DNA from: Balanoglossus misakiensis
Lineage: Eukaryota; Animalia; Hemichordata
Reading direction: 5' to 3'
Assembly: GCA_040954595.2 (NCBI GenBank)
Contig: CM082576.2
Coordinates: 18,895,028-18,959,027 of the forward strand
DNA: 64,000 nucleotides
The notes beneath the pieces were generated by a model. The model was given only the letters and a program-made list of their open reading frames with translations. It was not told the origin of the DNA and ran no database searches. Position 1 is the stretch's first letter, and the number at the start of each line of letters is the position of its first letter. Made by a program: the position numbers and the translations under genes. This document shows, one piece after another, positions 1-42,027 of the stretch.

Positions 1-3000
1 GCAAGCTTGATGATGCATCACGGTAGATAGTGATGCAAACACTTCACTTTGACATGGGCATTAAATGCATATGGGGATTTCAAGTTGATTACAAATCCCT
101 GGGTTAATACGCGTCCAAAAGCACTGTAATTTGACATTGCTAATGCGATGTTGACATTGAATGTAATTCTCCGCATTAGGGCAAATGGAAAAGCAAGCTT
201 AATGATGCAATGGAGTAGACGGTGATGCAAGCTATGCATTTTGACATAGGTATTTAATGCATGTGCATGGGTATTTAATGTTGAATGTAAATTCCCAGGT
301 TAATACATCTCCAAAAGCACTGTAATTTAAAATTGCTAATGTAAGGGTGACATTGAATCTGATTCTTTGCATTATGGGAAATGGCCTAACAAGCCTAATG
401 ATCTATCTGAGTAGATGGTGATGCAAGCTAAGCATTTTGACATAGGTACTAAATGTATATACATGGGTATTTAAAGTTGTCTGTAAATCCCCAGGTTAAT
501 ACATGGCCATAAGCTCTATAATTTGACATTGCTAATGAAATGGTGACACTGAATCTGATTCTTTGCATCAGGGTAAATGGCGATGCAAGCTTGATGATGC
601 ATCCCGGTAGATAGTGATGCAAACACTTCACTGTGACATGGGTATTAAATGCATATGGGGATTAAAAGTTGACTGAAAATCCCTGGGTTAATACAAGTCC
701 AAAAGCACTGAAATTTGACATAGCTAATACAATGGTGACATTGAATGTGATTCTTTGCATTAGGGGAAATGGCGTAGCAAGCCTAATGATGCATCAGTGT
801 AGATGGTGATCCAAGCTATGCTTTTTGACATAGGTATTTAATGCATGTGCATGGGTATTTAATGTTGACTGTAAATCCCTGGGTTAATACAAATCCAAAA
901 GCACTGTAATTTGACATTGCTAATACAACGGTGTCATTTAATCTGATTCTTTGCATCAGGGCAAATTGCGAAGCAAGCTTAATGATGCATCGGAGTATAT
1001 GGTGATGCAAGCTATGCACTTTGACATACGTATTTAATGCATATGCATTGGTATTTAATGTTGACTGTAAATCCCCAGGTTAATACGTGGCCAAAAGCAC
1101 TGTAATTTGACATTGCTAATGCTACCGTGACACTAAATCTGATTCTTTGCATTAGGGTAAATTGTGAAGCAAGCTTGATGATGCATCAGGATAGATGGTG
1201 TTTTAAGCCCCTCACATTGACATTGGAATATAACGCATATGGGGATTTAAAGTTAATTGTAAATACCCAGGTTAATACATGGCCAAAAGCACTGTAATTT
1301 AAAATTGCTAATGCAATGGTGACATTGAATGTGATTCTTTGCATTAGGGGAACTGGCGTAGCAATCCTAATAGTGCATCAGAGTAGATGGTGATGCAAGC
1401 TCTGCACTTTGACATAGGTATTTAATGCATATGCATGTGTATTTAATGTTGACTGTAAATCCTCAGGTGAATACATGGCCATAAACACTATAATTTGACA
1501 TTGCTAATGAAATGGTGACACTGAATCTGATTCTTTGCATCAGGGCATATTGTGAAGCATGCTTGATGATGCATTAGGGTCAATAGTGATGGAAACACTG
1601 CACTATGACATGGGTATTTAATGCATACGCATTGATATTTACAGTTGACTCTAAATCCCGAGGTTTATACATGGCTAAAAGCGCTGTAATTTAAAATTAC
1701 TAATGCAAAGGTTACATTGAATATGGGTAAATGGTGAAGCAAGCTTGAAGATGCATCAGGGTAGCTGGTGTTTCAAGCCCTTCACATTGACATTGGAATA
1801 TAATGCATATGGGGATTTAAAATTGATTGTAAATCCCTAGGTTAATACATGGCCAAAAGCACTGTAATTTAAAATTGCTAATGCAATGGTGACATTGAAT
1901 GTGATTCTTTGCATCAGGGCATATTGTGAAGCATGCTTGATGATGCATTAGGGTCAATAGTGATGGAAACACTGCACTATGACATGGGTATTTAATGCAT
2001 ACGCATTGATATTTACAGTTGACTCTTAATCCCGAGGTTAATACATGGCTAAAAGCACTGTAATTTAAAATTACTAATGCAAAGGTTACATTGAATATGG
2101 GTAAATGGTGAAGCAAGCTTGAAGATGCATCAGGGTAGATGGTGTTTCAAGCCCTTCACATTGACATTGGAATATAATGCATATGGGGATTTAAAATTGA
2201 TTGTAAATCCCTAGGTTAATACGTGGCCAAAAGCAATTTTATTTGACATTGCTAATGCAACGATGACATTGAATCCGATTCTTTGTATCAGGGTAAATGG
2301 CGATGCAAGCTTGATGATGCATCACGGTAGATAGTGATGCAAACACTTCACTTTGACATGGGCATTAAATGCATATGGGGATTTCAAGTTGTTTACAAAT
2401 CCCTGGGTTAATACGCATCCAAAAGCACTGTAATTTGACATTGCTAATGCGATGTTAACATTGAATGTAATTCTCCGCATTAGGGCAAATGGAAAAGCAA
2501 GCTTAATGATGCAATGGAGTAGACGGTGATGCAAGCTATGCATTTTGACATAGGTATTTAATGCATGTGCATGGGTATTTAATGTTGAATGTAAATTCCC
2601 AGGTTAATACATCTCCAAAAGCACTGTAATTTAAAATTGCTAATGTAAGGGTGACATTGAATCTGATTCTTTGCATTATGGGAAATGGCCTAACAAGCCT
2701 AATGATCCATCTGAGTAGATGGTGATGCAAGCTAAGCATTTTGACATAGGTACTAAATGTATATACATGGGTATTTAAAGTTGTCTGTAAATCCCCAGGT
2801 TAATACATGGCCATAAGCTCTATAATTTGACATTGCTAATGAAATGGTGACACTGAATCTGATTCTTTGCATCAGGGCATATTGTGAAGCATGCTTGATG
2901 ATGTATTAGTGTCAACAGTGATGGAAACACTGCACTATGACATGGGTATTTAATGCATATGCATTGATATTTACAGTTGACTCTAAATCCCGAGGTTAGT

Positions 3001-4930
3001 ACATGGCTAAAAGCGCTGTAATTTAAAATTACTAATGCAAAGGTTACATTAAATATGGGTAAATGGTGAAGCAAGCTTGAAGATGCATCAGGGTAGATGG
3101 TGTTTCAAGCCCTTCACATTGACTTGGAATATAATGCATATGGGGATTTAAAATTGATTGTAAATCCCTAGGTTAATACGTGGCCAAAAGCAATTTTATT
3201 TGACATTGCTAATGCAACGATGACATTGAATCCGATTCTTTGCATCAGGGTAAATGGCGATGCAAGCTTGATGATGCATCATGGTAGATAGTGATGCAAA
3301 CACTTCACTTTGACATGGGCATTAAATGCATATGGGGATTTCAAGTTGATTACAAATCCCTGGATTAATACGCGTCCAAAAGCACTGTAATTTGACATTG
3401 CTAATGCGATGTTGACATTGAATGTAATTCTCCGCATTAGGGCAAATGGCAAAGCAAGCTTAATGATGCAATGGAGTAGACGGTGATGCAAGCTATGCAT
3501 TTTGACATAGGTATTTAATGCATGTGCTTGGGTATTTAATGTTGAATGTAAATTCCCAGGTTAATACATCTCCAAAAGCACTGTAATTTAAAATTGCTAA
3601 TGTAAGGGTGACATTGAATCTGATTCTTTGCATTATGGGAAATGGCATAGCAAGCCTAATGATCCATCTGAGTAGATGGTGATGCAAGCTAAGCATTTTG
3701 ATATAGGTACTAAATGTATATACATGGGTATTTAAAGTTGTCTGTAAATCCCCAGGTTAATTCTTGGCAAAAAGCAATTTTATTTTACATTGCTAATGAA
3801 ATGGTGACACTGAATCTGATTCTTTGCATCAGGGTAAATGGCGATGCAAGCTTGATGATGCATCCCGGTAGATAGTGATGCAAACACTTCACTTTGACAT
3901 GGGTATTAAATGCATATGGGGATTAAAAGTTGACTGAAAATCCCTGGGTTAATACAAGTCCAAAAGCACTGAAATTTGACATAGCTAATACAATGGTGAC
4001 ATTGAATGTGATTCTTTGCATTAGGGGAAATGGCGTAGCAAGCCTAATGATGCATCAGTGTAGATGGTGATCCAAGCTCTGCGCTTTGGCATACGTATTT
4101 AATGCATGTGCATGGGTATTTAATGTTGAATGTAAATTCCCAGGTTAATACATCTCCAAAAGCACTGTAATTTAAAATTGCTAATGTAAGGGTGACATTG
4201 AATCTGATTCTTTGCATTATGGGAAATGGCATAGCAAGCCTAATGATCCATCTGAGTAGATGGTGATGCAAGCTAAGCATTTTGATATAGGTACTAAATG
4301 TATATACATGGGTATTTAAAGTTGTCTGTAAATCCCCAGGTTAATTCTTGGCAAAAAGCAATTTTATTTTACATTGCTAATGAAATGGTGACACTGAATC
4401 TGATTCTTTGCATCAGGGTAAATGGCGATGCAAGCTTGATGATGCATCCCGGTAGATAGTGATGCAAACACTTCACTTTGACATGGGTATTAAATGCATA
4501 TGGGGATTAAAAGTTGACTGAAAATCCCTGGGTTAATACAAGTCCAAAAGCACTGAAATTTGACATAGCTAATACAATGGTGACATTGAATGTGATTCTT
4601 TGCATTAGGGGAAATGGCGTAGCAAGCCTAATGATGCATCAGTGTAGATGGTGATCCAAGCTCTGCGCTTTGGCATACGTATTTAATGCATGTGCATGGG
4701 TATTTAATGTTGAATGTAAATTCCCAGGTTAATATATGCATGGGTATTTAATGTTGACTGTAAATCCCTAGGTTAATACATGGCCATAAGTACTGTAAGG
4801 GGTAGATGGTGATGCAAGCTCTGCACTTTGACATGGGGATTAAATGCATGCTGAGGGGGATTTTAAGTTGTCTGTAAATCCCCAGGTTGATATGTGGCCA
4901 AAAGCACTGTAATTTGACATTGCTAATGAT
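1..4930. repeat. Tandem satellite, 192/196-bp monomer, with higher-order repeats; begins before the window
   Basis: The motif GCAAGC(T/C)T(G/A)ATG recurs at 1, 193, 389, 585, 777, 973 and 1169 (spacing 192-196). Near-identical ORF translations recur at offsets of 957 and 584 bp. Confidence 0.95.
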
Positions 4931-5350
4931 GGTGAGCTGTACTCCCCAGGGAGTTGAATGGAATGTTTAGGTCCAACGACCTAGGTCAAATGACCATGGG
5001 ACAACTTTAAAGCATGTTGAGATTTAATGTGCTACATAAGTTATAAATATTATATTAATATTATTACATAAACAACACTCTTACCTAGCTAAGGAAGTGG
5101 TCAGGTGAAAAATATTTGCAGAGCTGACCAATTATTTAAGGAATATTAAAGTTGGGTAATTTGGACGTATTCATACGGGTGTTGGTCAATGGAAAGTCCT
5201 TTGTTCATTTTCAAAATGGCAACCAAAAATGCGAACAAAACACACTGAATTATGTACGGGATATTGGTGTTGCCTAATTTGCGTGTTTCCACATTTACTT
5301 AAACTCTCACAGGGAGACAAATGTCACAGCAAACGGAAAAATGACTATGC
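4830..5350 (+). repeat. Duplicated block (satellite end + SINE tail + flank), copy 1; copy 2 at ~8927-9456
   Basis: The run ACATGGGGATTAAATGCA...CTCCCCAGGGAGTTGAATGG...GCAAACGGAAAAATGA is colinear and highly similar at both places. Confidence 0.85.
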
Positions 5351-7199
5351 TACACACAACACTTTTATTGATCATGGAAAATGTTCATGAGAATTGTGTT
5401 ATGGTACTTTTCGGGGCTCACGACCTGTGTTATAGGAAATCTGACAAGGAATCCAAACTGTACCACATACACAACACTTTAATTAAGCATGGGAAATGGT
5501 CCTGAGAACAATATTCTCAGAGTTGACAAACTGTGTTATCTGCGTTATATTGATGTTGTCTAATTTACACGCCTGTACATTTATTTATACTCTGACTTTG
5601 AGCTTAATAAGGCAGCGCCTGCTAAGGTCAATTTGCCACGTACACTTTTAATTAGCATAGATAATGATCATGATAACTTCATTTTCAGAGCTGACAAACT
5701 GTGTTATGTGAAATTCATGTTGCCTATTTCATGATAATGGCTTGTGGTACACAATGGTTAACAGCAATCAGCAATTGCTTGTATGATAGGTATAATGATC
5801 GATTTACAAATTTCAATGGTATAATAATGGGCAACACATGTGGAAGTGTTTAATAAACAGTTAACTGATGTGGTGATGGTTTGTGGTAAAATTGAGGGTA
5901 CACAGATTATAATGGGCAAAACAATGAATATAATAGAGGTTGATGATGGTGAATGGTTTCATATGAATGGTGTAATAAAGGTTAACAAATGTGGTGATAG
6001 CTTTGGTGTACAGGGCTGTTCATATCTTTAGTAATGACAAAGGTATAATAGTGATAAAAGCTTAAATAAGTGTTAGGGCACAATCTTCATGATGGTTCAT
6101 TCATTGGTTAATGTGTATATTTTATTAATATCATGCTATTGTTTATCAGTTAGATCATAATCAGGGTTTTTCCATGCACATAGTCATCATGAATCAGCGG
6201 AATTCTTCTGAATAGTACCTGTGATCATTTTTGCGCACCGACGCATTGTACGCGACAGACATGCAGAAAATATTAACATGTAACTCACAGGCATAGTGTT
6301 AAATCTAAACGACTATATGTTAGATAAGCTTTACCTCCCCACCCCATCAAAATTCCAAATTTAGCTTGATGTGACGTTTTCGGGTAGTACCAATTCGGAA
6401 ACTTTCATGGTTCATTCATTGAACCAAATATTGGATTTGACACACTGTGTCTTGGGTGGGTAAAGCATGGTGAAATGTTGGCAGTAAACTTTAACCAGAC
6501 AGGTCACATGAAAGGAAGATTTTATCATTTGAGTTCGATGGCATACATGATAAGATATGTCAGTTCTGACACCTTTTTTGCAGATGTAGATGCTGATGTA
6601 TTTTTTCCATTGGACACAATACTCAAAGTCCAGTCTGTGTTTAAAATGATACCCTGGTCACACACAGTGAGAAATGTCAGCCTTTGACTTAATTATCTAA
6701 TTTATGCATTGTTAACAATGCACTGTGACATTTACTGCATGTATTTTTCCCCCTGTGGAAACTTACTATGCTTTGAATACATGTTCCCTAATGGGGTGTT
6801 AAAGGATACAGTAGGATCTGTTTCGGTAGCAAATATGACACTGTTTTCAACATATTTGACTGGTGGCAATATGTGGTTTTACGTTGGTATCCATCATGTA
6901 ACTCAGATCACCTATATGAAGCTCCATAGTAAATTTCACAGAAGTCGGCTGATCAATTCCAGAAAAGTAGATTTTTTACCAAAAATGTGGAAAAAGACAA
7001 AAAAATGCATAACAAGTAGAAAATTCACACTATTAGCTTAAAACATACAGAAATGTGTGAGGCTAATATAAGGTACTATCATACCATTTTTTCAAATCAA
7101 TATGACCAGGACTTGTCGAGTTTCTGAGTTTTGACCAAATTAAGGTTTTCCCAGCTAATTTGTATATATTTTTGGCAATGACAACTTCGTTTGAATAAA

Positions 7200-8510: not shown

Positions 8511-8583
8511 CATAAACAACACTCTTACTTAGCAAAGGAAGTGGTCAGGTGAACTATATTCGCAGAGCTGACCAATTGTTTAA

Positions 8584-8926
8584 AGGGGCAAAGTCTCTCA
8601 TCGCTGCCTTTTTTCAATTAATTATGTATGATACAAGACGCCATTGATGTTATTCTACATGTGGATATATGGTGAATCAACATTCGACCACACACAACTT
8701 CCGTCTCGTTTGTACGATATGAGAGTAAAAACTCGCCCAAAATGAATAAATGGTAAAGAACGATTATTCATTTTGGCGAGTTTTTCACTCTCCTGTCTAT
8801 AAGAGGGATGGAAGTTGTGTGTGGTTGAACGTTCATTCGCTATATATCCACATGTAGAATAACAAACGGTGTCTCTTATCAAATATAATATGGGAAAAAG
8901 GGCAGCGAGAGAGAGACTTTGTCCCT
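8584..8926. mobile_element. Kolobok-type TTAA MITE, copy 1
   Basis: TTAA|AGGGGCAAAGTCTCTC...GAGAGACTTTGTCCCT terminal inverted repeats; the right TTAA is missing. A second copy lies at 42784-43131. Confidence 0.8.
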
Positions 8927-9456
8927 CACATGGGGATTAAATGCACATGCGTGTGTATTTAAAGTTAACTGTAAATCCCCAGGTTAATACGTGGCCAAAA
9001 GCACTGTAATTTGGCATTTCTAATGATGGTGAGATGTTGTTTGCTCCCCAGGGAGTTGAATGGAATATTTAGGTCCAACATCCTAGGTCAAATGACCATG
9101 GGACAACTTAAAGCACGTTGAGATTTAATGTGCTACATAAGTTATAAATATTATAAAAATATTATTACATAAACAACACTCTTCCTTAGCAAAGGAAGTG
9201 GTCAGGTGAAATATATTCGCAGAGCTGACCAATTCTTTAAGGAAAATTAAAGTTGGGTAATTTGGATGTATTCATACGAGTGTTGGTCAATGATAGGAAA
9301 GTCCTTTGTTCATTTTCAAAATGAAAACCAAAAATGCGAACAAAACACACTGAATTACGTATGGGATATTGATGTTGCCTAATTTGCGTGACTCTACATT
9401 TACTTAAACTCTCACAGGGAGACAAATGTCACAGCAAACGGAAAAATGATTATGCT
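8927..9456 (+). repeat. Duplicated block, copy 2 (isolated satellite fragment + SINE tail + flank)
   Basis: Matches 4830-5350. Confidence 0.85.
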
Positions 9457-9459
9457 AAG

Positions 9460-11425
9460 CAATACGCCAACCTTTAAAATATACTTTAGAAAGTTTGTAT
9501 TCATACTTTCTTCAAGTTGTCATAACGCTACCCCGAAATGTGTTTAAGTATTGCCTTTGTATTAATGGGCTAGATTCATGGCGTTATATGTCATAAATTA
9601 AAAAGCCAACCCTTATTGATTTTGATAATATTTATGTCGGAGAATCCACAATGAAAAATATGTATTTCAATTTAATAACTCAAAATGATTTTCAAATCCA
9701 TGACCTTATTTTCAACTCCAGTGATCGTACATCCTGAACCTTGTGCCAGTAAATGATTGGCCATTACAGGGTTAATGGGCACTCTCCCGTTCTCTTCCTC
9801 CGCAGTTTCATTCATGTTCTTGTTTGACGGAAATGGGTGTGACCAGACGCTTGAATGTTTTCATGTGGGTGTCGTTGTTCATCGGGATCGGTCTCCTGGT
9901 GTGTCTGTACAGGTACGCAAGGAGAAACTGCCCACAAGAAGCTGCGAGTGAAACTATTTAAGGTAGTATGTGCCTCGCGGTCCGAGATTCAGACAAATGA
10001 TAGTCCTCAAAACTTTTTCAAGTCTTTGATTTACTAAAGTGTATGGTGAGTCTCTTTGAAAACAACAAAAACATTACTCACCATATTGTTATTTTTTTGA
10101 AAGTTTAAAATGAAGTTGACAATGTACCAAACAGATTCTATTTATTTCTTCATGACCATGTTCACCCCAAGGTCATATGGACCTGCAAGTATATGCCAGA
10201 GCCAGAGTCGACATTACCGAAGCCAGAGTTCAAAGCTTGCAGGTCACCCCTTGCCAGCTCATGTCTAGCTAAACTGCCATGGATGCCAAGAGATATAGGA
10301 CTACAGTAACCTGTAGATGGTTTCAGTATGTTTGAAGAAAGTGGTGGCGCACTTTTGGCTACATTTGAAATGGCTATGGTACCAGTGGTTGAATTTGCAA
10401 AGGTGACCTTTGACCTGGTATCATTAAAGATATTAAAGAACGATTGAACATTCCTTGTTGTCGTAAAATGACATCTGTAATAACTTATATTTTATCTGTT
10501 CATCTTGAAGTACTATATATTTAAACGCCAATTTTCCATTGCCAATCAATTTTTACAAATAAATTGTAATATGCATGTTGATTTTACAAAAACTCCTTAC
10601 TTCAAAGTGAATTCTGTTACACATCACGTAAATATTTTCCCCACGAATTCTTCAGTTGCTGACTCGGAAATTTCATATATTGGGCAGAAATTGGATATAT
10701 TACCGAGCCATTAAAATTACAGTTTTCTATTTTAATTGATCTTCCATAACTTCAAGTACTTTGATTTGACATAAATTAAAACATCATGGTGAATAAATAA
10801 AAAATCTTTGATTATCTAATTGTGCATGTTTACATGGTTTTATTTTAGTATGCTGGGTACTTAATGTCTAATTGCTCGCTGATTTTATACTGTTCAAGAT
10901 GACAATCTAATTTTAGTTTTCAGCTGATAATGGAAATTACTGATTAAAAAAATTGAATTTTGTCATGAATAAACTTGTTGTTCATGGCAGTTGCTGTACT
11001 TTGTTTCATGTGTATTCAATTTTTGCAAGAATACCATTGAGCACAGTTTGATTTGATTAAACACGTTTATCGGAAAATTTTGTCATTTGAAATATCTGTT
11101 TTTGCGCCCTCTACCATTTGACCAAATGATTCTCTTATTTTGGTGGCCTTTGTCTGTGTATATGAGAATACTATAGTACTCTCGCATCGATGATAGTAGA
11201 AGTTGAAAACGTCTCTTGCCACGTGGCCTAGAAGAAAGGTGATCTTTAGAGTAAAATAAAACAAACTATCCAGATAGGAAGCTAGAAAAGAAGTTGAATC
11301 GTTGAAATTTTATTTATTTTTATATTGTTAATATCGTTGGTGATGTTGACTGGCCGACAATCTTTGTCACACCAGTATTTGCAGGTAGATTAAAACATTG
11401 CCTATTCCAGCAATAATCACAACAG
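9460..11425 (+). repeat. ~2-kb dispersed repeat, copy 1 (unclassified)
   Basis: Colinear, high identity with 30649-32616 from CAATACGCCAACCTTTAAAAT to CCAGCAATAATCACAACAG. Confidence 0.9.
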
Positions 11426-13274: not shown

Positions 13275-15047
13275 TTGGAAGGGACTGCTTTAAAAGATTA
13301 TGTTAGAGAGGAACAAATTAGACAGAGGGATCTTAGGGCTACTGAGAGAGAGGAGCAGAGAGAAGATAATAGGCGGCGCGAGGAACATGAGAGAGAGATA
13401 CTGAAAATGCAAATTCACTTACAAGAATTAAAATTGAAAGGGGAAAATACAGAACAGCAGGTTACTGAAAATAATTTGGCCAAAGCGCGTGCTCCGAGAC
13501 TACAGGGTTTACGTGAGGATGTTGATGATATGGATGCGTACCTTCAACGTTTTCAGCGCTACGCCACTGCTCAGAAGTGGGAAAAAGATGACTGGGGGTG
13601 AATCTCAGTGCATATTGTTACAAGGTAAGGATGTATCCACATACAACCAAATGCCTGCAGCGTCTGCAAATAATTATGATGAATTGAAACCAGAGTTATT
13701 GAGGGCTTACCAGTTAAGTGAGGAGAGTTTTCATGACAAGTTCCGTTCGTGTATGCCACATTATGATGAAAGTGCTCAAAAGTTTATGGACCGTATTGGT
13801 GACTATTTGGGCAGATGGGTAGAACTGGCTGGTACTCCAAAGACGTACAATGGGCTTACAGATCTGTTACTTCGAGAGCAGTTTATTGGAGTATGTTCCA
13901 GAGACATGGCAATGTTCATTAGAGAGCGACGGCCAGAGAATGTCCAAGAGATGGTATCTACTGCCTCAAAATACTTAGATGCCCGAGGGTGGTGGAAACT
14001 GCCAAGTAATGCCAAGAATAATCCAAGGAGCCAGCCGACAGCAAATACCAAGCCTGCTGTATATCCAAATCAAGTAAATAAGTTTAATAACAAAACCAAT
14101 GGTTCCCATGTTTTTAAAGGTACGTGCTTCGTATGTGGTAAAGGTGGTCATATGGCCAAAGATTGTAGAAGTAAGCCAAAGATGCATAAGACGGCGGTAT
14201 TGTTAACTGAAGAAGATAGAAACTATCCACCTAAACAAGAATGTACACATTGGGGCAACCGTCAACAGCCCAGGGGACTAGACACTGGTTATGCATGTAT
14301 GGTGGTAGCAATGGAAATAGATAAAACAGATGCAACACTGAATAAGGAGTTCGTGTTACCATGTAGTCATAAGCTCCCAGTGATGAGTGCTGCTTGTAGT
14401 GCCCATGGAGTGAAGAAGATGCCGGTAATGAAGGGATTGGTCGATGGTAAGCTGGTTAGCGTTTTGCGTGATAGTGGGTGTAGTAGCGTGGTAGTTCGAA
14501 GAAGTCTGGTGTCAAGTAATCAGCTGACTGGTGAGTACAGGACGTGTGTTCTGATAGATGGGACTATTAGAAGAGTACCTGTAGCCTCTATAAAAGTTGA
14601 TACCCCTTACTTTGTTGGTGATGTTACTGCACTGTGCATGATGAACCCTGTGTATGATTTAATACTGGGCAACATTGATGGTGTATCTGACCCTTCGAAT
14701 CCTGATACTACATGGCAGGAACCATTGCCGACATGTAGACTGTGTACAACTGTTGGACAGGTACCAGGTTTAGCAAATGCTGTGGAGACCAGAGCCCAGA
14801 AGATAGCCAACCAAAAACCAATCAGAGAGCTTAAAGTACCTAAAGCTGTTGGTGAAGTGGTGATGCCAGGGAAGCTTCAACAAGCTCAAGAAGAAGACTC
14901 CACTCTTGACAAACTACGTGAGAAGGCAATTTTGGGTGACGAGAAAGTGACTAGGAATGGAGGTAGGTTGAAGTTCATCATGAAAGATGGGATCCTGTAC
15001 AGAGAGTTCAATTCGCCAATGGTCCAATTTGGTGAAAAGCTGTTACA
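13275..15047 (+). pseudogene. gag: Gypsy gag-protease (frameshifted near 13595-13615)
   Basis: DDMDAYLQRFQRYA..W gag motif, SCAN-like LLLREQF, zinc knuckle CFVCGKGGHMAKDC, aspartic protease LRDSGCSSVVV. The frame is broken at 15048 by the insertion. Confidence 0.9.
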
Positions 15048-15087
15048 CACTGCGGGAAATACTAGAGCTATGTTGGGCAGTATTCCG
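15048..15087 (+). repeat. Left bipartite terminal inverted repeat
   Basis: CACTGCGG, an 18-nt spacer, then TGGGCAGTATT at positions 27-37 from the end. Confidence 0.85.
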
Positions 15088-15131
15088 CGAAGCGCGAGCT
15101 CCCATGTTCACCATAGCAACGCATTGCCAAG

Positions 15132-15775
15132 ATGGCGGCGCCCGTGTTGATCGATGCCGAGAAAGTTATAAAACGCAAATTGCGAGAGGCAAAATCTGTG
15201 CTTAAAAATGCGTGTCGGACAATCTGTATATACACCCACTCTTTGATGAACTTGAGGATGTGACAACAAGGGCCATATTTCGAAACGACAAGCTGTCAAA
15301 GGACAAGATTCGTTGGCGTGACGTCGCCGTATTTCCCATGTTTCAGCGTGATATGACCTACTGGCAGAAGACCTTCTACGCTCGGCTGTCAACATCCCCG
15401 TCGTTAAGGTCACCATGGCAAAGCAGCTTTACACAACAAATGCCGAGGGAAGTATTTGATGTTTTTCATCAGTTTGCTACTCGGACCGGTTTTGGTATCG
15501 ACGAGAAGACCTCCAGGGCTATCATAACCTTGACCTTCACAAGTTCCTCGAAGCTATTGTATGTGATACGGAAAGGTTATTGCTACGAGGGCGCTATCGG
15601 TCAGCATACAGAGAATATCCTAGAGAAGAAAGTCCGTGGAAAGAGGGTAGCTGTTATATGCACACCTGAGAAGCCCTGTGTTGTGAAATATTTTATCAAC
15701 AGGGAGACTGTTGCTGTTAGATTCAGCTTTGGTGCCTGGAACAAACATGGAATTCCATTACATCCAGAGAACTGA
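15132..15775 (+). CDS. Transposon partner gene, ~214 aa, unknown function; one apparent frameshift
   Basis: 187-codon stop-free frame at 15212-15775. An upstream AAGATGGCGGCG start at 15132 joins it if one A is added to the A5 run near 15204 (MAAPVLIDAEKVIKRKLREAKSVLKKCVSDNLYIHPLF...). AATAAA at 15904. Confidence 0.65.
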
Positions 15776-16627
15776 ACCCTATTGATTTTTCACACTGATT
15801 CAACCCATCTGACGAACATTTTTTTCCTGATCTGTGGCACATGTTGTTCAGTGTAGATGTATCAGTCTGTCAAGACAGTCCTCTCACAATTGACATATAT
15901 TCAAATAAAAAAAGGAAAATTAGAAGACTCAAAAATTCATCACTTGTCTTTATTTATCTACATTCAATACAAATGAACAGATAACGTTTACAAAATTTCC
16001 TAAACTGTAAAATTCTTTTTTTCCATCATTATTGTAACATAGATTTTTCATTAGTTTCAGAAAAAAATGTATGTTACCTACAATCAACATTGATAAGTCA
16101 ATCAAAACTGCTCATCTAACAGTTAACCAGGATTTCTGGTCTAAATTTAATTAATATTTACAATTAATTCCATGACAAAATTTATAAATATCAAGAATTT
16201 GATGAGACTTAATTCTTTATTTTTTCACAAATTCATTAAAATTTCGTGCAGGTGCAGAATAAACAACTCCTCAAGAAAAATGTAAAACTTTTCTATCAAG
16301 CTTATGTATGTCATACATTTTAATTTTGCAAAGCACTGCAATCACTATACGATTAAGGGTTTATTCACAATACTTAATAGTGGTAAGATAAGTTTCAATT
16401 TCCCTGTCCCCATACATGCACACATATACAAAATCCCATAAGAAACATATCATCTCCAGTTCAAAAAGTGTGAATTCATGTGATTTGTGATCTCCATTTT
16501 TATTAAATGCAGCTCTCAACTACAGATGAGTCTTTATAATTCTGTAATGTAATTAATACCATAGTTATCCTTTAATTCTAAAGTAGCACACAGTGACACA
16601 ATCCACTGTTTCAAATTCAATCATTGT

Positions 16628-18868
16628 TCACAGCATAAGTTTCTTGAGTTTATTTGATATTTTACCAGTGACAGCTGCTTTTTTTATGTCATCCATAATT
16701 GGGTCAACACATATTTCACAGGCAGTCATTGTTTCATTTTTCAAATTGCCACACATACAGTAGCCTGCATTCTCATAATATCGACTGGGAATGTATTTTT
16801 CTTTTTCTTTAAGCTCAAATTGACCTACATTTGCCCTTCTATAGTTGTCAGCTTTTGGACTTTTGTTCCTCAGCCAAAAAAGCATCACATATTCGTGTCG
16901 AAATATGAGGGCCCACCTATTTTGAGGTGTAGAATTTTCACTGAATTCTAGCAGGCGTAGATGCTTTGCCTCTCTGCCTTCCATTGTGTTTAGGCCTAAT
17001 CCCAGACTGAATTGCTTATAGATACTAGTGGTGTGTTTTGGGACTACATAACCAATGTGCCACACAGTATTATTGACATTCAGAAACAGGGAATGTAGAT
17101 TAAAGTACCACCGACACTTATGCCTAAGTACAAGCAAATCTCCCTCATTTATGTTGAATCGTGAGAATAACAAAGTGATATCTCAAAGCAAGATACCAGT
17201 ATATGTGTAGAGAGCTAATTGAGCCCGACGCTTTGGACTGTCTGTATCGCTTCTCAATGCTAATACCAATCCCATGAAATGCCAAGCAAGTTTGCGAGAC
17301 TCCTCACCAGTGAAGCGATAAACCACATTAATGTTGGCATTTGACTTGACACTATTTTCATTGAAGTATTTTACAATCTTATTATACAACTTTCCAGCTT
17401 TTACTTGATATTTTAGGGCAGACAGGAATTTGTACAGATATGACTCGTTAGGTAGATTCTCAATTTTAACTCCATTTTCACGACCCTTTTCCGAAGTGTG
17501 GGCAACTGCGTCAATCAGTAATCGTTGGAAGTAGTATTGCCATGCATTGTTCTTTAAATGCAATGGCTCAGCCTTGGCACAATCAATAAATCTACCCAAC
17601 GGTGGTACAAATTCCTGTCTTGACCTCAGACTGGCTATAAATTGTGTGATTTTGGGTCGCACTGTTTTGGGCTTTCCAGTTTTAATTTTCTTAGTTGACT
17701 TCAACTTTTCAACAGCTTCTGCATCTTTAATTCTTTTCTGATATTTCCATTCATCCCACTTCTGACCTGGGCCAATTTCTGCTCCAATACAATCAATATC
17801 ATTTTTGGAAACGTTAGCAAATGAGCTGAAATACTTTGCTGCATTGCTTAGTTCTCCAGACACACTGGCCAATCCCTTCTGATCAAAGGGTAAAAGTGAC
17901 ACCTGAAAAGTTACATCAAGACTGCCAACTTTATATTTACGTTTCTCAATACACTCAAGGTCTTTTGACAATGCAATTGCAAATTCAATCATTATGGGGT
18001 CATCCTCTTTTATGTTTGCCCCTAATAGGAGAAAATTGTGGTCTGGGCTAGCAACACGGTGGGTCACATTCAAGAAACTAACTAGCCATGCAGTAGCCTG
18101 TCCATGTTTGCCAAACGGAGCCCCGTCAGCACCTATACTGATTTGAAATGAGCCCTCCTGTTTACCGAACCAGTTAAGAATATCAGGCTGTGTTTCCCCC
18201 ATATTTAAATATAAACTGGCAATCTTAATAAGCAACTCCTCAGGGTTTCTTTTTAAGCCGACTTGTTTGCCTTCAGATGATATAATTGGCTCAAGATTTC
18301 CAATGTCAAGGTTACTTACATACTGTACAACTTTTGTGTATGGGAGCAGTCTTGGTATTCTACAGCCAGAATGAATTTCTAATGCTTTCCTAGGATGTTT
18401 CAAGTTGGAGAACATCTGAAGTTCACTCTGCCTCAGACAGTTATATTTTCGTTTGGATAGTACTCCGCCCTCATACATAGTTCTGACACTCCTCACCAAA
18501 TTGTTCTCACTTTTCTCAAATTTACTGATGTATTTATCAAATACTGATGGCATTACTTTTTTACTGATTTGGGGAGAGGTTCTGAAGTATGTTTTCATTT
18601 GGTCAGGAGTGGCAGAATTAACAAGAGTATACCACAAACCATCAAGTGCTGCTTTTGGTGGATGTAGTACATTCGGTTTATTTATACCTTTGGCTGGGCT
18701 TACATCTGTAGTTGCTACATGAATATTTATGGCTGCTGATAAGGTTTCACACCTACGTTCATACTGTTGACGTCGCGACAGCTTCAAAGATTCACTATTA
18801 TCTGCACATACTTCAGTGTTCTTGTGGACCCATTTAGAGCGTTTCACATTAACATCATCAACAGGAAT
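16628..18868 (-). pseudogene. DDE transposase main exon, RAG1/Transib/Chapaev-like; single in-frame TGA at 17183-17185
   Basis: ORFs 17183-18847 and 16628-17173 share a frame across one TGA (likely CGA>TGA; LL*DITLLFSRF). Motifs in RAG1-core order: GADGAPF (D at 18125-18127), PFDQKGL..G (D at 17882-17884), EPLHL, RFTGEESRKL, GLNTMEGREAKH (E at 16970-16972). Acceptor TTAATCTTTCAG ends at 18869. Confidence 0.85.
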
Positions 18869-19221
18869 CTGAAAGATTAAGTGTGTGATAAATATATAAT
18901 AATTAGAATATAATCATTATATATAAAATAAAATCTTCTTACAAGTTAATCATTAATTTAAATGTCCTTGATAAGAAATACACAAGTGTAGCCTGTATTT
19001 TTCTGACAACTTCTGCAATAAAAATCCTAAAAAATATATATAGTTTGTTGGAAAACCTAGATGTTTTGCATCAAAGCTGAACCCATTTTGTTATCATTGT
19101 TTACACAGGATCATGTGACATGAAGTTCAAAAAGCGAATTTGGGCTAAAATTTGAAGAGGATTTATACAAATCTGAGATTTTTAAAATTATGACTAAGTC
19201 TATTTATCTGATCTAGCTTAC

Positions 19222-19681
19222 CTTTCTCTTATTATTCTTTGTAGCTAAGATCTCACAAATCTTACTGTTCTTCTTCTCTAGTCTAGCTAGCTGGGTTGAG
19301 GATCTTTTTACTAGTCTCCTAGCTGCACTCAACTTATTCAACTTATCCTGAATTATGCTTTCTTCCTCATCTCTCTTTCTCTTTCTCTGTCTACACCACT
19401 CTCCTAAGTTAAACCTGTGTTTAGTCTGTCCTCTCTTTGTTCTAACTACCAATAGGTTGTTGGCCACGCTCCCAGACAAAGATCTAGTCTTCAATTTCTC
19501 CTGATATAGTTGTTGCAAACACTTCTCTTCAGCTACCTGTCCCGCTAACTTTTGGTCCTTTGCCCACTGGCCTATGTTGAAGTAACTTTTCCCTTTTCTA
19601 TTCGGCATAACAATAGACAAACTTTTAAGAAGTGCGCTACTCCTGTTGAATAGTTTGCCCCACATGGCTCTAAATCTATAC
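19222..19681 (-). CDS. Upstream exon of the transposase (basic, coiled-coil-like N-terminus)
   Basis: The open frame ends at AAG|GTAAG (donor at 19221) in phase 0 and matches the phase-0 acceptor at 18869 (353-bp intron). Acceptor CCCTTTTCAG at 19682; candidate ATG at 19665. The true start may lie further upstream. Confidence 0.75.
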
Positions 19682-20473
19682 CTGAAAAGGGTGAACAAGA
19701 GAAATATCTTTACAATAATTATCTATCCGAGGGAAGCAAAAACAAAACACCTGCTCATTATACTTCCTCCAGAAATTGAGGTCAAAGGTGACATAGAAAG
19801 AATGTGGGTAACCTTACCATAACAATCTCGCCCGTTCATTTTTTTCTTATTTCGTTTTCACCCTCGAATTTCCAGCGAATTATATCAAGAATATATTTTA
19901 GCACAAACTATTGGTTTCTGATTTTTCAGTTACGGTCTTATTTTCTGTCAATTCTATGAACAATATCACCATGTCGCTGAAAATTCGAAGCGCCGCCATT
20001 ACAATCAATGTAACCCGTGCTGCTGCCAAGGAACACACAGGGTCGTATATTTTCGCTTGGTATGATTTCGTCATATTGCTTGTAGCAGCATTTTAAACAT
20101 GGAATCCTATGTTTACGTATAAAAGACTAAATTCGTATGGTTTTCAAATTGAAAAAAACAATTCTGTGAAGCTGAATCGTTGTAATTTTTAGTGTTTGTT
20201 TATGGTTGCTTAGGACGGCTTCTGGTATAGCAACGGCCAGGGACTGTCAGCGGGTGATCAAAATGTTCAAGTTATTTGGCTGATACACATAAATAACACA
20301 GCAGAATCGCAACTTTATTTCATATTGTCTCTGACATCTTGCTAATTTTACTAAACAAAACTTGGAATAAAGCAATATTACTCACCGAATTATGCTGTGC
20401 ATCGACAGCTGTGTTCGATCGCGAACGCCATTACTGTGTCTAATTAAATATTCATGAGCTTCATAGGCTGCCA

Positions 20474-20514
20474 CGGAAATACTGCCCATAGGTGGCGTCG
20501 TTCAAGCTGTAGTG
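20474..20514 (-). repeat. Right bipartite terminal inverted repeat
   Basis: The reverse complement reads CACTACAG, an 18-nt spacer, then TGGGCAGTATT at positions 27-37. Confidence 0.85.
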
Positions 20515-20517
20515 ACA

Positions 20518-22885: not shown

Positions 22886-23944
22886 AATGTCCCATGTGCT
22901 TCCTGGCTAGCATTGTGGTAACATATTATTCGGGGTGTCCGCAGATCGTTCATTGATTTTCTGAGAAATAGCCTAACTGATACTATCTCCAACATAAACC
23001 GCACCCTGGAAAGATTAAATGATCTTTTAGGTGGACTTTGAAAATCTGATTAACTCATCTAAGCATTTTAGCTAAGTTGTATATTTTTTAATTATAATCA
23101 TACAAAATACTTAAAAAATAAAAACAATGTTCAGTTTTAATACCCACTGATGAGGGGAAACATCAGTTTCAAATTCTTTTCATGGGAGCGCTTGAGCAGA
23201 GTTATGAGTTTTGCTCTGTGAAAGAAAATGGGGGGATTTCAAAATTTTGGCAGTTCGGAAGGGGGATTTCAAAATATTTCGGGTTGTGAAAGGGGGGGGG
23301 CATGTGAAAATTAGCGGTAAAAGATGAATCCCCCCCCCCCTCCAGAGGTGTTTGTGAATGCAGCCTAAGAAAGAAAAAATGTGAAATGGGTCAAATATGG
23401 GCCGGACGTGCCCATTCAACTCAATTTACTTTTGTTTGCTTTAAGTAGGAATTGATCACAGCTATATTTATTTTGGACACCTGAGCGACAAGAAAACAAT
23501 CTGATTCTACATTTTAAAAAGAGTCATTGGAAAAGCACTGCAATTTTGTTTCTTGCTTTAAAAAAGTTTGGGGTGGCATGTAATAATTAAGGTGTGTCTA
23601 AATTACTAATTTGGTGCACCTCAAAGCCCTTAGCCAATGTAAATTATATCCTGCATTGTATTCATGATATTTGCATGGCATTTGCATGCGCGTATCACGT
23701 CTCCTTGCTCTGCAAAATAGTCGAGATTTTCTGCAAAGGATTCCAGTTTTTTGTTGTATTACTCAAGGAATTGGTTTACGAATGGTCTATGCTTGTCCTG
23801 CTGTGGTCAGAAATTGATGTTCTTTGCTTTTGACAAGGCATTTGGGCCGAATTTTAGTGAACTTCGGTAAGCCATTCACTACTGCTGATAGCGGTTACGT
23901 AATTTGGTGTGGGATCGTGACGTGGCCACTTGTGGTGACTCAGT

Positions 23945-25123
23945 ATGCCTCTGACCTGCGAGGACTGCGGAGAGTGCTCTTCGAGAGTTAGTCTGTGCCA
24001 AGGAGATATGCATCTGTGTAATACTTGCAACAAGAAACGATTTGGTGGCAGTAACGGCTCTACAGCGGATGGAGGAAGTGGACGAAGTAGAATAAGCGAC
24101 AGTGGTGTGGTAATTAACGAACTTTTATGTTTTATTGTGAATAAGATGGATGTTCTTACAACAGACCTGCTGGTGAAGTTGTGTTGCGACCAATTTAACG
24201 ATGGAGAAGTCGAGACTGCAAAGCGTACTCTTTTTGAACTATGTTGCAATGACCCTGGGAGGATGATAAAACGTCAGGGGCAGAATAAACGATTCAACAA
24301 TTTGATGGATATGGTGAAATTGCTCCACGAAGTTGACATTGAAGACCTGCCATGCTTCGTTGCTAAAGATTTGGCAAAACTCCCGCCAATTGATACGTCT
24401 CACATCGACGTCTCCACATTGATGACAGAACTGAAGTCACTAAGGCGAGAAATGGCACAAATGAAAGACACTGTGGTGCGGTCCGAGGTGACCGATTTTG
24501 CAAGTGAACTCAGTTTGTTGCGGCAAGAAATTTGTGAAGTGAAAAATTGCGTCGATAATTTGCAGAAAGGAGGTGTTGAAAGCGACGTGGTTTCACAGGT
24601 GGCACAATGTGAGCCGCCAAGACCAGCTGTTTGTGAGCCACTGGATCCCCATTGTTCTCTGAACAAAGACCCTCATACGAGCTCGTATGCAGACATAGTT
24701 CAATCACGTGTATCAGCGGTGAAAGCCAAGCGTCCAGTTCAGTCGGACCGTCCATCGACAAAGGTATCTGAAATCCAGTCGGGGAATGGAGAAGAAGAGT
24801 TTACTGTGGTGTCTCGCCGACCTAAACGTCGTCCTCAGGCAGTTTTTGGCACAGCAAAACTCAGTGATGATTCTGCTATCAAATCTGTTCGCCCTAATCC
24901 GCCTTTTAAATTTTTTGTCACTAGATTTGCACCCACAACGACTTCAGATGCTGTTATTTCTTATATTAAAAAACGCAGTCATGTTACCGTTAAATGCGAA
25001 CAACTGAAAACCAAATATGATACTTATTCATCATTTGTGGTTGAAACGACACGTGAGTTCGCCGAGGAAATTCGTGACCCTGCGATGTGGCCTGATGGTA
25101 TTCTTATCCGCCGTTACTATTAA
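23945..25123 (+). CDS. LINE ORF1 protein, 392 aa
   Basis: Intact ATG-to-stop ORF ending 8 nt before ORF2. N-terminal CxxC..CxxC, VVINELLCFI block, coiled coil, and C-terminal RRM-like FFVTRF...YSSF..WPDGILIRRY typical of CR1/L2 ORF1. Confidence 0.88.
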   Translation: MPLTCEDCGECSSRVSLCQGDMHLCNTCNKKRFGGSNGSTADGGSGRSRISDSGVVINELLCFIVNKMDVLTTDLLVKLCCDQFNDGEVETAKRTLFELCCNDPGRMIKRQGQNKRFNNLMDMVKLLHEVDIEDLPCFVAKDLAKLPPIDTSHIDVSTLMTELKSLRREMAQMKDTVVRSEVTDFASELSLLRQEICEVKNCVDNLQKGGVESDVVSQVAQCEPPRPAVCEPLDPHCSLNKDPHTSSYADIVQSRVSAVKAKRPVQSDRPSTKVSEIQSGNGEEEFTVVSRRPKRRPQAVFGTAKLSDDSAIKSVRPNPPFKFFVTRFAPTTTSDAVISYIKKRSHVTVKCEQLKTKYDTYSSFVVETTREFAEEIRDPAMWPDGILIRRYY

Positions 25124-25131
25124 TTTATTGT

Positions 25132-27946
25132 ATGACACTACGTCTTTCTACATATAACTGTCGTGGCATAAAGTCATCAGTAGACTCTATTATGTCTCTC
25201 TGTAACGATCATGATGTTATACTCGTTCAAGAACACTGGCTGACGGAAGCGGAACTACCTCTTCTGTCGAGTATTCACAAAGACTTTAATGCATGTGGTA
25301 TTTCTGCCATTCAAGATGACTGTGGAATTCGCATCGGGCGTCCATTTGGTGGAGTTGCAATCATGTGGCGTAAATCCTTGGGACAAAACTTTTCAATAAA
25401 ATATTTAGATGATACAAGACTTTTAGGTGCTGATATTGTTACATCTTCTGGAAAACTTTTTATTTTATGTGCGTACCTCCCGACCTGTTCTGGAGAAAAT
25501 TATGACACTTATATGAATTATTTGGCAAAAATTAATTGCATTATTAATGATATTGACACAACGAATGTTATAATTCTTGGCGATTTTAACGCTAACTTTG
25601 GTACAATATTTGCTAGGGAGCTTGATATTTTTTGTAAAGAACATAATTTGTATATCTCCGATGTTGAAAAGCTTGGTAGATGCAATGATAATTTTACATT
25701 CGTTAGTGATGCACATGGTAGTACTGGTTGGTTGGACCATATTTTGAGCACCCATGCAGTACATAATGCTATTTCTAGTATTGGTATTTTGTATGATTAT
25801 GTGTCCTCTGACCATTTTCCTCTTTCTGTAAATATTGATATTGTTGGGTTAGTACATACAGATCCGATTCCACAAAATGTTACCAATGCTCATGCGAAGC
25901 CTAACTGGAGTAAAGCGACACCCAGGAACTTGTCTGCTTATGAACATATGACGGAGTGCTTACTCCGTAGACTGGATATCCCAAATGTTGCTCTTGTATG
26001 TCGAGATCCTAACTGTAAGAATATAGATCACATTAGCAGTCTAAATTCTTTGTATTCGAATATTGTTACTTCTCTTAAATCAGCTGCGTTGAACTGCATT
26101 CCTGCTTCGAAGGCAGAGGGGTTGGGTTTTAATACTGTTCCAGGTTGGAATGAACATGTACGTGATTTTCACAATGCCGCTCGTGATGCATTTAAATTAT
26201 GGGCTGCTAATGGCAGGCCTAGGTTTGGCCCGCTCTTTGATCTCATGCGCAGAACTCGTGCAAAATTTAAGTCGGTTTTACGGGCGTGTAGAAGAGATGA
26301 AAACCTAGCCAGGGCCCAGGCTTTGGCCAAAAACTTGACGCAGGGGGGCACACGTAAGTTTTGGCAGTCTGTACATACCACTCGTGGTTGTTTATCTTCG
26401 CTTCCGACCAGTGTAGGTGGCTGCACCGGTCATGAAAATGTTGCCGATATGTGGAAACAACATTATGAAAGTTTGTTGAATTCTGTTTCGAACTGTCGTG
26501 ATAGAGCATTTGTATTGTCATCGTTAAATGAAACTGGTTCCCACAACAATGCCATGGTTGTTACTGCGATGGAACTAAAAGGGTGTATTGATAAGCTTGA
26601 GAAGGGAAAGGCATTGGGCTATGATGGTCTTGGTGCCGAACATCTCATGTATGCAAGTCCAATCATTTGCGTTATGTTGAGTTTATGTTTTACTAGTTTT
26701 TTTACACATGGTTATTTACCCGAGACTTTAATGCACGCCATTATTTGTCCTATTGTGAAGGATAAATCCAAAGATCTTACTTCTGTGGATAATTATAGGC
26801 CCATTGCAATTGTCACGGCCATCTCGAAAGTTCTGGAACTTTGTATTCTATCTCGTATTGATTCACTCTTAGATACAAGCAATTTACAGTTTGGTTTTAA
26901 AAGTAATCACTCTACCGACATGTGTATCTTTGTTCTCAAAGAAATTGTTGACTTTTATAAGAGGCATAATACGCCAGTTTACCTCTGTTTTATGGATGCT
27001 ACGAAAGCTTTTGATAGGGTCAACCACTGGACTTTGTTTAGAAAACTGATTAACTGCAAGATACCTCTTTTTATTATTCGTATTTTACAATATTGGTATA
27101 GTAATCAATGCTTTTCTGTGCGCTGGGCATCTGTAATTTCTAATTCCTTCAGTGTTATTAACGGTGTACGGCAAGGAAGTATTCTTTCACCCAAACTGTT
27201 CGCTATATATGTAAATGATTTAAGCGGTCAGCTGCAATCAGCCGGGGTTGGCTGTTACCTAGCTAATACCATTGTTAACCATTTGTTCTATGCAGACGAT
27301 TTAGTCTTGATTTGTCCGTCGGTCAAAGCATTACAGAAACTGAGTAACATTTGTGAACTGTATGGAAATGAGCATGATATTATTTTTCATACTGCAAAGA
27401 CAGAGTGTATGGCAATTTTCCCAAAGTCTTGGAAAGCACACAGAATTCCTTGTGTATATTTGTATGGTAAACCTCTTAAGTATGTATGTACAAAAAAAGT
27501 ATCTTGGCTATATTATGTCCTCTTCGGGTATGGATGATGCTGATATGCAGCGGCAGCTTCGTTGCTTTTATGCTAGAGCTAATTTTATTTTGCGTAATTT
27601 TGGCCATTGCTCATATAAGGTGAAGTGCACTCTTTTTAAAAGTTTTTTATATAGTGTTTATTGTCTTAACGTGTGGTGTAACTACAGTGTCAAACAAATG
27701 TCTACTTTAAAAGTTGCGTATAACAATACCTTAAGATTGATTTTTAATCTGAAACGCGATGTAAGCATAAGTCATAACTTTGTAAGTAGGAATATTTTGA
27801 ACTTCACCTCGCTACATCGAAAATTGGTTTTCTCCTTTTGCCAACGCTTACAAAAAAGCGGTAACCCGGTTATCCGCAGTTGTATACAGACTGACTGTTA
27901 CTTTTTATCTACATTCTGGGGGCATTGCAGGGTTGTTCTTCATTAA
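25132..27946 (+). CDS. LINE ORF2 (AP endonuclease + RT); one frameshift at the A7 run 27492-27498
   Basis: APE motifs TYNCRG, QEHWL, GDFNA, WLDHIL, SDHFPL. RT motifs NYRPIA, QFGFK, DATKAFD, GVRQGSILSP, FYADDL. Deleting one A gives KKYLGY and continues into ORF 27353-27946. Confidence 0.92.
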
Positions 27947-30535: not shown

Positions 30536-30648
30536 GCGTTAACATAACTTTATCAGAATAAGTTAACGCCATAACTTTGACAGAATAAGAGTTGCCTCAA
30601 ACGGCTCTAACCGAATTTCCATTAATAGCAGAACAAACAAGCTGTAAT

Positions 30649-32616
30649 CAATACGCCAACCTTTAAAATATTACTTTAGAAAGTTTGTATTCATACTTTC
30701 TTCAAGTTGTCATAACGCTAACCCGAAATGTGTTTTAGTATTGCCTTTGTATTAATGGGCTAGATTCATGGCGTTATATGTCATAAATTAAAAAGACAAC
30801 CCTTATTGTTTTTGATAATATTTATGTCGGAGAATCCACAATGAAAAATATGTATTTTCAATTTCATAACTCAAAATAATTTCCAAATCCATGACCTTAT
30901 TTTCAACTCCAGTGATCGTACATCCTGAACCTTGTTCCAGTAAATGATTGGTCATTACAGGGTTAATGGGCACTCTCCCGTTCTCTTCCTCCGCAGTTTC
31001 ATTCATGTTCTTGTTTGACGGAAATGGGTGTGACCAGACGCTTGAATGTTTTCATGTGGGTTGAGTTGTTCATCGGGAACGGCCTCCTGGTGTGTCTGTA
31101 CAGGTACGCAAGGAGAAACTGCCCACAAGAAGCTGCGAGTGAAACTATTTAAGGTAGTATGTGCCTCGCGGTCCGAGATTCAGACAAATGATAGTCCTCA
31201 AAACTTTTTCAAGTAATTGATTTACTAAAGTGTGTGGTGAGTCTCTTTGAAAACAACAACAATATTACTCATCATATTGTAATTTTTTGAAACTATAAAA
31301 TGAAGTTGACAATGCACCAAACAGATTCTATTTATTTCTTCATGACCATGTTCACCCCAAGGTCATATGGACCTGCAAGTATATGCCAGAGCCAGAGACG
31401 ACATTACCGAAGCCAGAGTTTAAAGCTTACAGGTCACCCCTTGCCAGCTCATGACTAGCTAAACTGCCATGGATGCCAAGAGATATATGACTACGGTAAC
31501 CTGTAGATGGTTTCAGTATGTTTGAAGAAAGTGGTGGCGCACTTTTGGCTACATTTGAAATGGCTATGGTACCAGTGGTTGAATTTGCAAAGGTGACCTT
31601 TGACCTGGCATCTTTAAAGATATTAAAGAACGATTTACCATTCCTTGTTGTCGTAAAATGACATCTGTAATAACTTATATTTTATCTGTTCATCTTGAAG
31701 TACTATATATTTAAACGCCAATTTTCCATTGCCAATCAAGTTTTTACAAATAAATTGTAATAAGCATGTTGATTTTACAAAAACTCCTTACTTCCAAGTG
31801 AATTCTGTTACACATCACGTAACTATTTTCCCCACGAATTCTTCAGTTGCTAACTCGGAAATTTCATATATTGGGCAGAAATTGGATACATTACCCAGCC
31901 ATTAAAATTACAGTTTTCTATTTTAATTGATCGTCCATAACTTCAAGTACTTTGACTTGACATACATTAAAAACATCATGGTGAATAAATAAAAATTATT
32001 TGATTATCTAATTGTGCATGTTTACATGGTTTTATTTTAGTATGCTGGGTACTTAATGTCTAATGGCTCGCTGATTTTATACTGTTCAAGATGACAATCT
32101 AATTTTAGTTTTCAGCTGATAATTGAAATCAATGATTCAAAAAAATTGAATTTTGACATGAATAAACTTCTTGTTCATGGCAGTTGCTGTGTTTTGTTTC
32201 ATTTGTATTCAATTTTTGCAAGCATACCATTGAGCACAGTTTGATTTGATTAAACACGTTTATCGGAAAATTTTGTCATTTGAAATATCTGTTTTTGCGC
32301 CCTCTACCATTTGACCAAATGATTCTCTTATTTTGGTGGCCTTTGTCTGTGTATATGAGAATACTATAGTACTCTCGCATCGATCATAGTAGAAGTTGAA
32401 AACGTCTCTTGCCACGTGGCCTGGAAGAAAGGCGATCTTTAGAGTAAAAAAAACAAACTATCCAGATAGGAAGCTAGAAAAGAAGTTGAATCGTTGAAAT
32501 TTTATTTATTTTATATTGTTAATATCGTTGGTGATGTTGACTGGCCGACAATCTTTGTCACACGAGTCTTTTCAGGCAGATTAAAACATTGCCTATTCCA
32601 GCAATAATCACAACAG
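30649..32616 (+). repeat. ~2-kb dispersed repeat, copy 2
   Basis: Matches 9460-11425. Confidence 0.9.
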
Positions 32617-42020: not shown

Positions 42021-42027
42021 TGTACTG

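Follow-up and report, generated by a model that had tools for sequence, protein, structure and literature searches.

A 64,000-nucleotide stretch of the genome of the hemichordate Balanoglossus misakiensis (GCA_040954595.2, contig CM082576.2, positions 18,895,028 to 18,959,027 of the forward strand; hereafter the window) carries an insert of 5467 bp at 15048–20514. The insert is a damaged two-gene DNA transposon that encodes a predicted cut-and-paste transposase of the RAG1/Transib/CACTA DDE type and, in a facing gene, a likely cofactor; within the CMCT clade it probably forms a branch of its own. It likely represents an undescribed lineage with a RAG-like two-gene layout but a different partner. 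Relatives were sampled as the best 80 of 238 metagenome loci. The lineage is found in one hemichordate and many cnidarians, is abundant in Nematostella and corals, and is recently active and widespread.

Boundaries and ends of the transposon

The insert starts with CACTGC, ends with GTAGTG and is flanked on each side by a copy of ACA (15045–15047 and 20515–20517), exactly as the first-pass annotation had placed it. When the boundaries were moved by as much as 4 bp and duplication lengths of 2–8 bp were allowed, only two boundary pairs gave a 3-bp duplication, no pair gave one of at least 4 bp, and CAC was present at both ends only with 15048/20514. The insert interrupts the pol frame of a Gypsy retrotransposon, which reads ...FGEKLL into the transposon and opens with QVVVP downstream of it, just before the integrase zinc-binding domain (Pfam Integrase_H2C2 begins at the fourth residue of the downstream half). 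Across the insert, both halves keep the same register, in line with the earlier proposal that excision restores GEKLLQVVVP. An uninterrupted Gypsy copy was looked for as a comparison, and none was found.

The left end (15048–15084, plus strand) and the right end (20478–20514, minus strand) each have a terminal CACT and, at positions 27–37, the same subterminal TGGGCAGTATT (15074–15084 and 20478–20488, respectively). An in-register run of 10 nt was reached in 8 of 200,000 shuffles. The termini do not form a long inverted repeat, with identities at 22 of 40 positions.

The relatives show how such ends behave in other copies. Near-identical copies have different flanks, and their shared sequence stops at termini of the CACGC(C/T)GG type. 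Five of the 12 two-ended loci are flanked by a 3-bp duplication (L018 TAG, L028 ATT, L065 AAT, L066 AGC, and L076 GAT), one by a 2-bp match, and two by a 1-bp match; four have none, and a 4–5-bp duplication occurs in 0 of 12. Unrelated flank pairs match over 3 bp by chance in 22 of 690 cases (p 2e-5 for the five of 12). From these duplications, the stagger is 3 bp. Several loci lacking a duplication share one flank and differ at the other (L012/L013, L016/L018, and L020/L021), which suggests collapsed short-read assemblies. A set of 35 non-redundant termini has a second, weaker element at positions 23–33 (≤0.84 bits), alike at left and right ends, which coincides with the place of TGGGCAGTATT in the window. 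In three loci (L018, L028, and L076), both ends and a duplication are preserved, and the frames of the transposase core and of the partner are open.

The window copy itself is damaged in both genes, by an in-frame TGA in the transposase and a frameshift in the partner, and is probably dead unless the stop and the frameshift are assembly errors. The element had been called complete, which is apt for its structure and not for its coding state.

The convergent transposase and partner genes

The transposase gene lies on the minus strand and comprises two predicted exons. Exon 1 (19222–19665) has 148 codons, is basic and contains two copies of an FN(I/L)GxW motif that is also N-terminal in nine relatives. 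It is followed by a predicted AT-rich, phase-0 GT-AG intron (18869–19221) with canonical sites (AG/GTAAGC at 19222 and TTTCAG at 18868). Exon 2 (16628–18868) has 746 codons and includes the RNase H-fold core, the in-frame TGA (17183–17185) and a C-terminal four-cysteine motif. The predicted splicing gives 894 codons, in agreement with the spliced gene of about 890 residues first proposed. The TGA position is Arg in 136 of 145 relatives.

Every motif quoted earlier as following the order of the RAG1 core is present in the translation. One suggested pairing, of LKLSRRQQYERR with the RAG1 N-terminal block, is not supported, as structural alignments to RAG1 begin at model residue 111–117. Residues D248 (18125–18127), D329 (17882–17884), H437, and E633 (16970–16972), all in exon 2, are near-invariant across the family. 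The LH motif is present (L436 in 163/166 and H437 in 165/165 proteins). The C(2)C zinc motif, on which the first-pass annotation was silent, is absent: CxxC was found in 0 of 174 proteins within 31 columns after D329, where the consensus reads YFSSFA. As for the H(3–4)H motif before the Glu, the second His is kept in 132 of 142 proteins and the full motif in 52 of 141; the window protein does not have it. A C-terminal four-cysteine tail, Cx1-2C..Cx2C, is present in 115 of 124 proteins. Regarding a Chapa zinc finger, predicted exon 1 has two Cys and no zinc-finger Pfam match, among models that included none for Chapa, and further upstream exons are possible. Two divergent members have an extra N-terminal domain, with a partial bromodomain match below the cut-off (E 5e-4) in P0132 and a Cys/His-rich stretch in P0217.

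The transposase core is predicted to have a RAG1-like fold. In the Atlas structure search with family member P0002, the template modelling (TM) score was 0.63 for RAG1, 0.62 and 0.61 for Transposase_21 clusters of the CACTA type, 0.59 for Plavaka, and 0.58 for a fungal DUF1280 cluster. The Atlas feature neighbours were RAG1_RNase_H clusters and a DUF1280 cluster from fungi; those listed include no Transposase_21 set. Identity to RAG1 is only 9–12%, neither the single protein nor profiles of 76 and 23 members retrieved a RAG1 or HzTransib chain at E up to 10, and no RAG1 Pfam match was found in the transposase or the family members searched. Since no CACTA or Chapaev chain is among the PDB structural matches, RAG1 may be the top structural match by default; to our knowledge, no structure of a CACTA or Chapaev transposase has been solved. 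The label "RAG/Transib-like" thus holds for a predicted RAG1-type DDE fold and overstates a special kinship, as there is no profile link and the CACTA and Plavaka models superpose about equally. Of the features that define the CMCT clade, the family has a predicted RAG1/Transib/CACTA-type DDE transposase with an RNase H fold, 5′-CA..TG-3′ termini and a duplication within 2–5 bp. A fair statement is that the transposase has the CMCT-clade fold with the zinc site lost and can be filed provisionally, on fold and ends, as a deviant branch of that clade.

The partner gene (15132–15775, plus strand) encodes about 210 amino acids when intact and corresponds to Pfam accession PF26709 (family profile E 7e-48 at 15203–15763). 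Its probable start, ATG 15132 in a AAGATGGCG context, does not lie in the reading frame conserved at 15206–15775, the shift being near 15200. An AT-rich spacer with AATAAA on both strands (15776–16627) separates the two stop codons and, judging from its sequence, probably corresponds to overlapping 3′ untranslated regions of both genes.

With the small protein of the window as query, partner matches were found in 35 of the 80 loci, and in 32 of the 35 loci that extend 1.5 kb or more downstream, where the gene is missing in L030, L051, and L072. All 35 full matches are downstream of the transposase on the opposite strand, i.e., tail-to-tail. Intact partner proteins have 200–240 amino acids and start with MAA. 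Across 17 representative loci and the window, distances between transposases are correlated with those between partners (rho 0.62, p 2e-4) and the two trees have most supported groups in common. The ratio of non-synonymous to synonymous substitution (dN/dS) is 0.26–0.35 in three pairs and saturated in six. The partner is a constant part of the element, family-wide and tail-to-tail, under purifying selection. The 3-bp duplication and the convergent partner, both claimed originally for the window copy, prove to be family-wide.

A partner profile search returned 110 relatives, 101 of them with accession PF26709; the named members of this type are uncharacterized Acropora proteins, and no mention of PF26709 was found in the literature searched. 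The predicted model of the L076 copy (208 amino acids; predicted local distance difference test score of 86) consists of three helices and one α/β domain and is not a kelch propeller; likewise, none of 18 partner members had a kelch Pfam match.

Some further features of the partner region were observed. Near the terminus, the partner start is nearly always in a AAGATGGCG or AAAATGGCG context (KMAA; 15127–15140 in the window), which we take to be a YY1-type start motif. The reverse strand of the window there reads GCCATCTTG, and its identity with the letters of ProtoRAG TR5, as given in PMC8289069, is probably a coincidence through this motif. Inverted partner-gene fragments of 80–180 bp are located upstream of the transposase, near the left end, in four families (L010–L014, L016–L018, L019, and L020/L021/L042/L055) and could be a source of hairpin or antisense RNA. 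L009–L014 have a second, inner CACGCC terminus after the inverted fragment, as though a right end, once inverted, had come to serve as a new left end. Finally, L043 (2728–5005) has an insertion of about 2.3 kb between transposase and partner relative to L001, L002, and L075.

The host retrotransposon and other features of the window

The host Gypsy (9456–32616, plus strand), presumably of the Gmr1 type, is a long terminal repeat retrotransposon and not part of the transposon. Its gene order is protease, integrase, reverse transcriptase, with integrase upstream of reverse transcriptase, and its Gag has a SCAN domain and a zinc knuckle. The terminal direct repeats (9456–11425 and 30645–32616; 1975 bp) are 96.4% identical, which bounds the age of the DNA transposon insertion and indicates that it is fairly recent. 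The Gypsy is no longer intact: in addition to the DNA transposon, it contains frame changes and a second insertion. A long interspersed nuclear element (23939–27946) inside it has a 394-codon first open reading frame without a Pfam match and an endonuclease–reverse transcriptase frame of 813 codons, followed by a frame of 200 codons.

Much of the remaining window is repetitive. A tandem array at 1–4935 consists of about 25 copies of a unit of about 196 bp (76% matches); a related piece (8928–9457) abuts the 5′ repeat of the Gypsy and matches 4831–5352 at 90.6%. A large satellite (33603–40193 and 43987–64000) has units of 77–79 bp, with variants of 27–28 and 105–107 bp; it occurs in either orientation and inverts at several points between 34.9 and 37.5 kb. 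Between the satellite blocks, a 443-bp inverted repeat pair with 94% identity (42025–42467 and 43139–43573) encloses a 350-bp stretch that recurs at 8580–8926; the pair and the enclosed stretch are possibly a small non-autonomous DNA element.

Mechanism, alternatives and known systems

By analogy with RAG1 and HzTransib, a transposase dimer would bind both ends, nick beside the terminal CAC and open the second strand by forming a hairpin on the flanking DNA; the ends would then be joined to the target with a stagger of 3 bp instead of 5. The second motif, about 25–35 bp inside each end, may be a second binding site, equally spaced at both ends, unlike an asymmetric 12/23-type arrangement; either the basic N-terminal helices or the four-cysteine tail at the C-terminus would recognize it. 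Zinc, which RAG1 and Transib use, would not be needed for folding of the helical insertion domain, and the small facing gene likely supplies a cofactor needed for movement. Chances are about even that the partner is an accessory subunit of the transposition complex, with the role of RAG2 and an unrelated fold. That it acts apart from the transposase, as an anti-silencing or regulatory factor, is a possibility of second rank, and some other role is quite improbable.

Several points weigh against this account. The ends of the window element rest on one copy and on family resemblance, and its CACT.. termini are unlike the CACGC.. consensus of the relatives, among which the 3-bp duplication is absent in seven of the 12 two-ended loci. 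The sampled loci are redundant, and 17 were taken as representatives. The catalytic residues were assigned by conservation and secondary structure rather than by residue-level superposition, and structure searches gave no convincing match for the partner that points to a function.

Of the alternatives, the one that survives best concerns the small gene, which would be a defence-evasion passenger, e.g., a nucleic-acid-binding or Argonaute-mimicking anti-silencing protein, and not transposition machinery. We regard this as rather doubtful. The weak Argonaute N/PAZ lead, i.e., ArgoN/ArgoL1/PAZ clusters among the Atlas feature neighbours of the partner (0.93), the four short-Argonaute (SPARTA) entries among weak Foldseek rows (E about 0.1) and the inverted partial gene copies near the left end in several families agree with it. 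However, the Atlas signal is weak by its own bars (134 of 256 features common, recognition 1330), no Argonaute chain is among the 50 VIA matches listed, and strict retention and co-divergence are compatible with both roles.

A deep branch of Transib/RAG proper, sister of RAGL with a different tail-to-tail partner, would bear directly on the acquisition of RAG2 and is unlikely. The low identity to RAG1 and the failure of the profiles contrast with the 26% that RAG1L and Transib share on average (PMC9435367); moreover, the family lacks the zinc ligands that RAG1L conserves, has a tail other than Cx2Cx3GHx4C and shows symmetric end spacing. Chain length may account for the Z gap.

Least probable of the three is that the family belongs to EnSpm/CACTA or another CMC group as a divergent animal member, perhaps one that Repbase or Dfam already contains, with a CACTA-like accessory as partner and a RAG1 likeness that is the shared clade fold: the near-equal TM scores of the Transposase_21 clusters and the abundance in Nematostella and corals, whose genomes we take to be covered by repeat databases, speak for it, but the second gene of CACTA is normally co-directional and no Transposase_21 set is listed among the Atlas feature neighbours. 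Repbase files elements as EnSpm by CACT termini and a 3-bp duplication, according to PMC12730594; yet Transposase_21 (PF02992) matched none of 23 members at a cut-off of E ≤ 1 (among the first 25 of 30 families listed) and 0 of 120 precomputed rows, and C(2)C, given in the same paper as common to all CMCT groups, is absent in 174 of 174 proteins.

The reading as a separate two-gene CMCT branch can be extended, tentatively, to an undescribed superfamily-level branch of RAG1/Transib/CACTA in cnidarians and hemichordates, in which a zinc-site-free transposase depends on a new-fold, tail-to-tail partner; this would be an independent ProtoRAG-like design with bipartite, recombination-signal-like ends and a 3-bp stagger. 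How the RAG1 ancestor came to depend on a second subunit and what sets the 5-bp stagger are standing questions in V(D)J evolution. The lineage is a natural point of comparison, as it combines the same predicted core and gene layout with a different, obligate-looking partner, a 3-bp stagger and the absence of a zinc site. The intact-looking two-gene copies L018, L028, and L076 make excision and partner-dependence assays directly feasible. If true, PF26709, whose named members are all "uncharacterized", would gain a function, and many uncharacterized coral and acorn-worm genes would become transposon genes. This is tempered by a CMCT clade already rich in divergent lineages and by known 3-bp Transibs. 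A literature search found no description of the lineage, its scope excluding Repbase Reports, Repbase, Dfam and most subscription journals, which is the main limit on novelty. The family motifs are absent from the accessible supplement text of PMC12730594, PMC9435367, and PMC7204232, where alignments are possibly pictures or letter-spaced. The significance would rise if repeat databases proved to lack the lineage, a tree set it apart and its movement required the partner.

Among known systems, RAGL/ProtoRAG and vertebrate RAG1–RAG2 (PDB 6dbi, 4wwx, and 6b40) share the convergent second gene. RAGL elements have 5-bp duplications, a kelch RAG2L and zinc ligands, four in number (PMC9435367, PMC7204232, PMC10629977, bioRxiv 10.1101/100735, and PMC8289069), whereas the duplication here is 3 bp in the window and in five of 12 relatives. 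RAG2L is a six-bladed kelch protein and RAG2 a kelch-PHD protein, in contrast to the 210-residue helical-hairpin and α/β protein found here. The RAGL transposase has ZnC2 and ZnH2 ligands and a Cx2Cx3GHx4C tail (PMC7204232); C(2)C is absent here and the tail is Cx1-2C..Cx2C. The symmetric ends and the distant sequence separate the two further.

Transibs were described as encoding a transposase only (PMC1131882). The premise that they make only 5-bp duplications is outdated: the Nozomi group has 3-bp and 2-bp duplications, and Hayabusa and Transib-6 make 3-bp ones (bioRxiv 10.64898/2026.08.26.747230). Transib (HzTransib, PDB 6pqn/6pqx) keeps C(2)C and H(3–4)H, and Kojima lists C(2)C for every CMCT group (both in PMC12730594); sequence similarity between Transib and the family was not detected.

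Chapaev3 resembles the family in its CAC..GTG ends, 3-bp duplication, LH motif and animal hosts (PMC4079192). However, its duplications are TWA and it has C(2)C (PMC4079192 and PMC4411706), with H(4)H and a Chapa zinc finger (PMC4079192), whereas ACA, TAG, ATT, AAT, AGC, and GAT include no TWA (0/6), C(2)C occurs in 0 of 174 proteins and the second gene is constant. A set-aside inner-end pair in L010 reads TTA.

EnSpm/CACTA, Plavaka, ESTA, and Lanisha (CMCT groups in PMC12730594) share the CA..TG termini and the 2–5-bp duplication. The predicted CACTA and Plavaka models equal RAG1 in fold similarity (TM 0.59–0.62), and CACTA too has an accessory gene. The family differs from EnSpm/CACTA and Plavaka in having no Transposase_21 or Plavaka match, no C(2)C and a convergent partner of an unrelated family. 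The initial statement that the element fits none of the known groups cleanly holds for RAGL, Transib, and Chapaev3 as defined. The likely novelty is a CMCT lineage that combines two genes, a partner family of its own, duplications of 3 bp and the absence of C(2)C.

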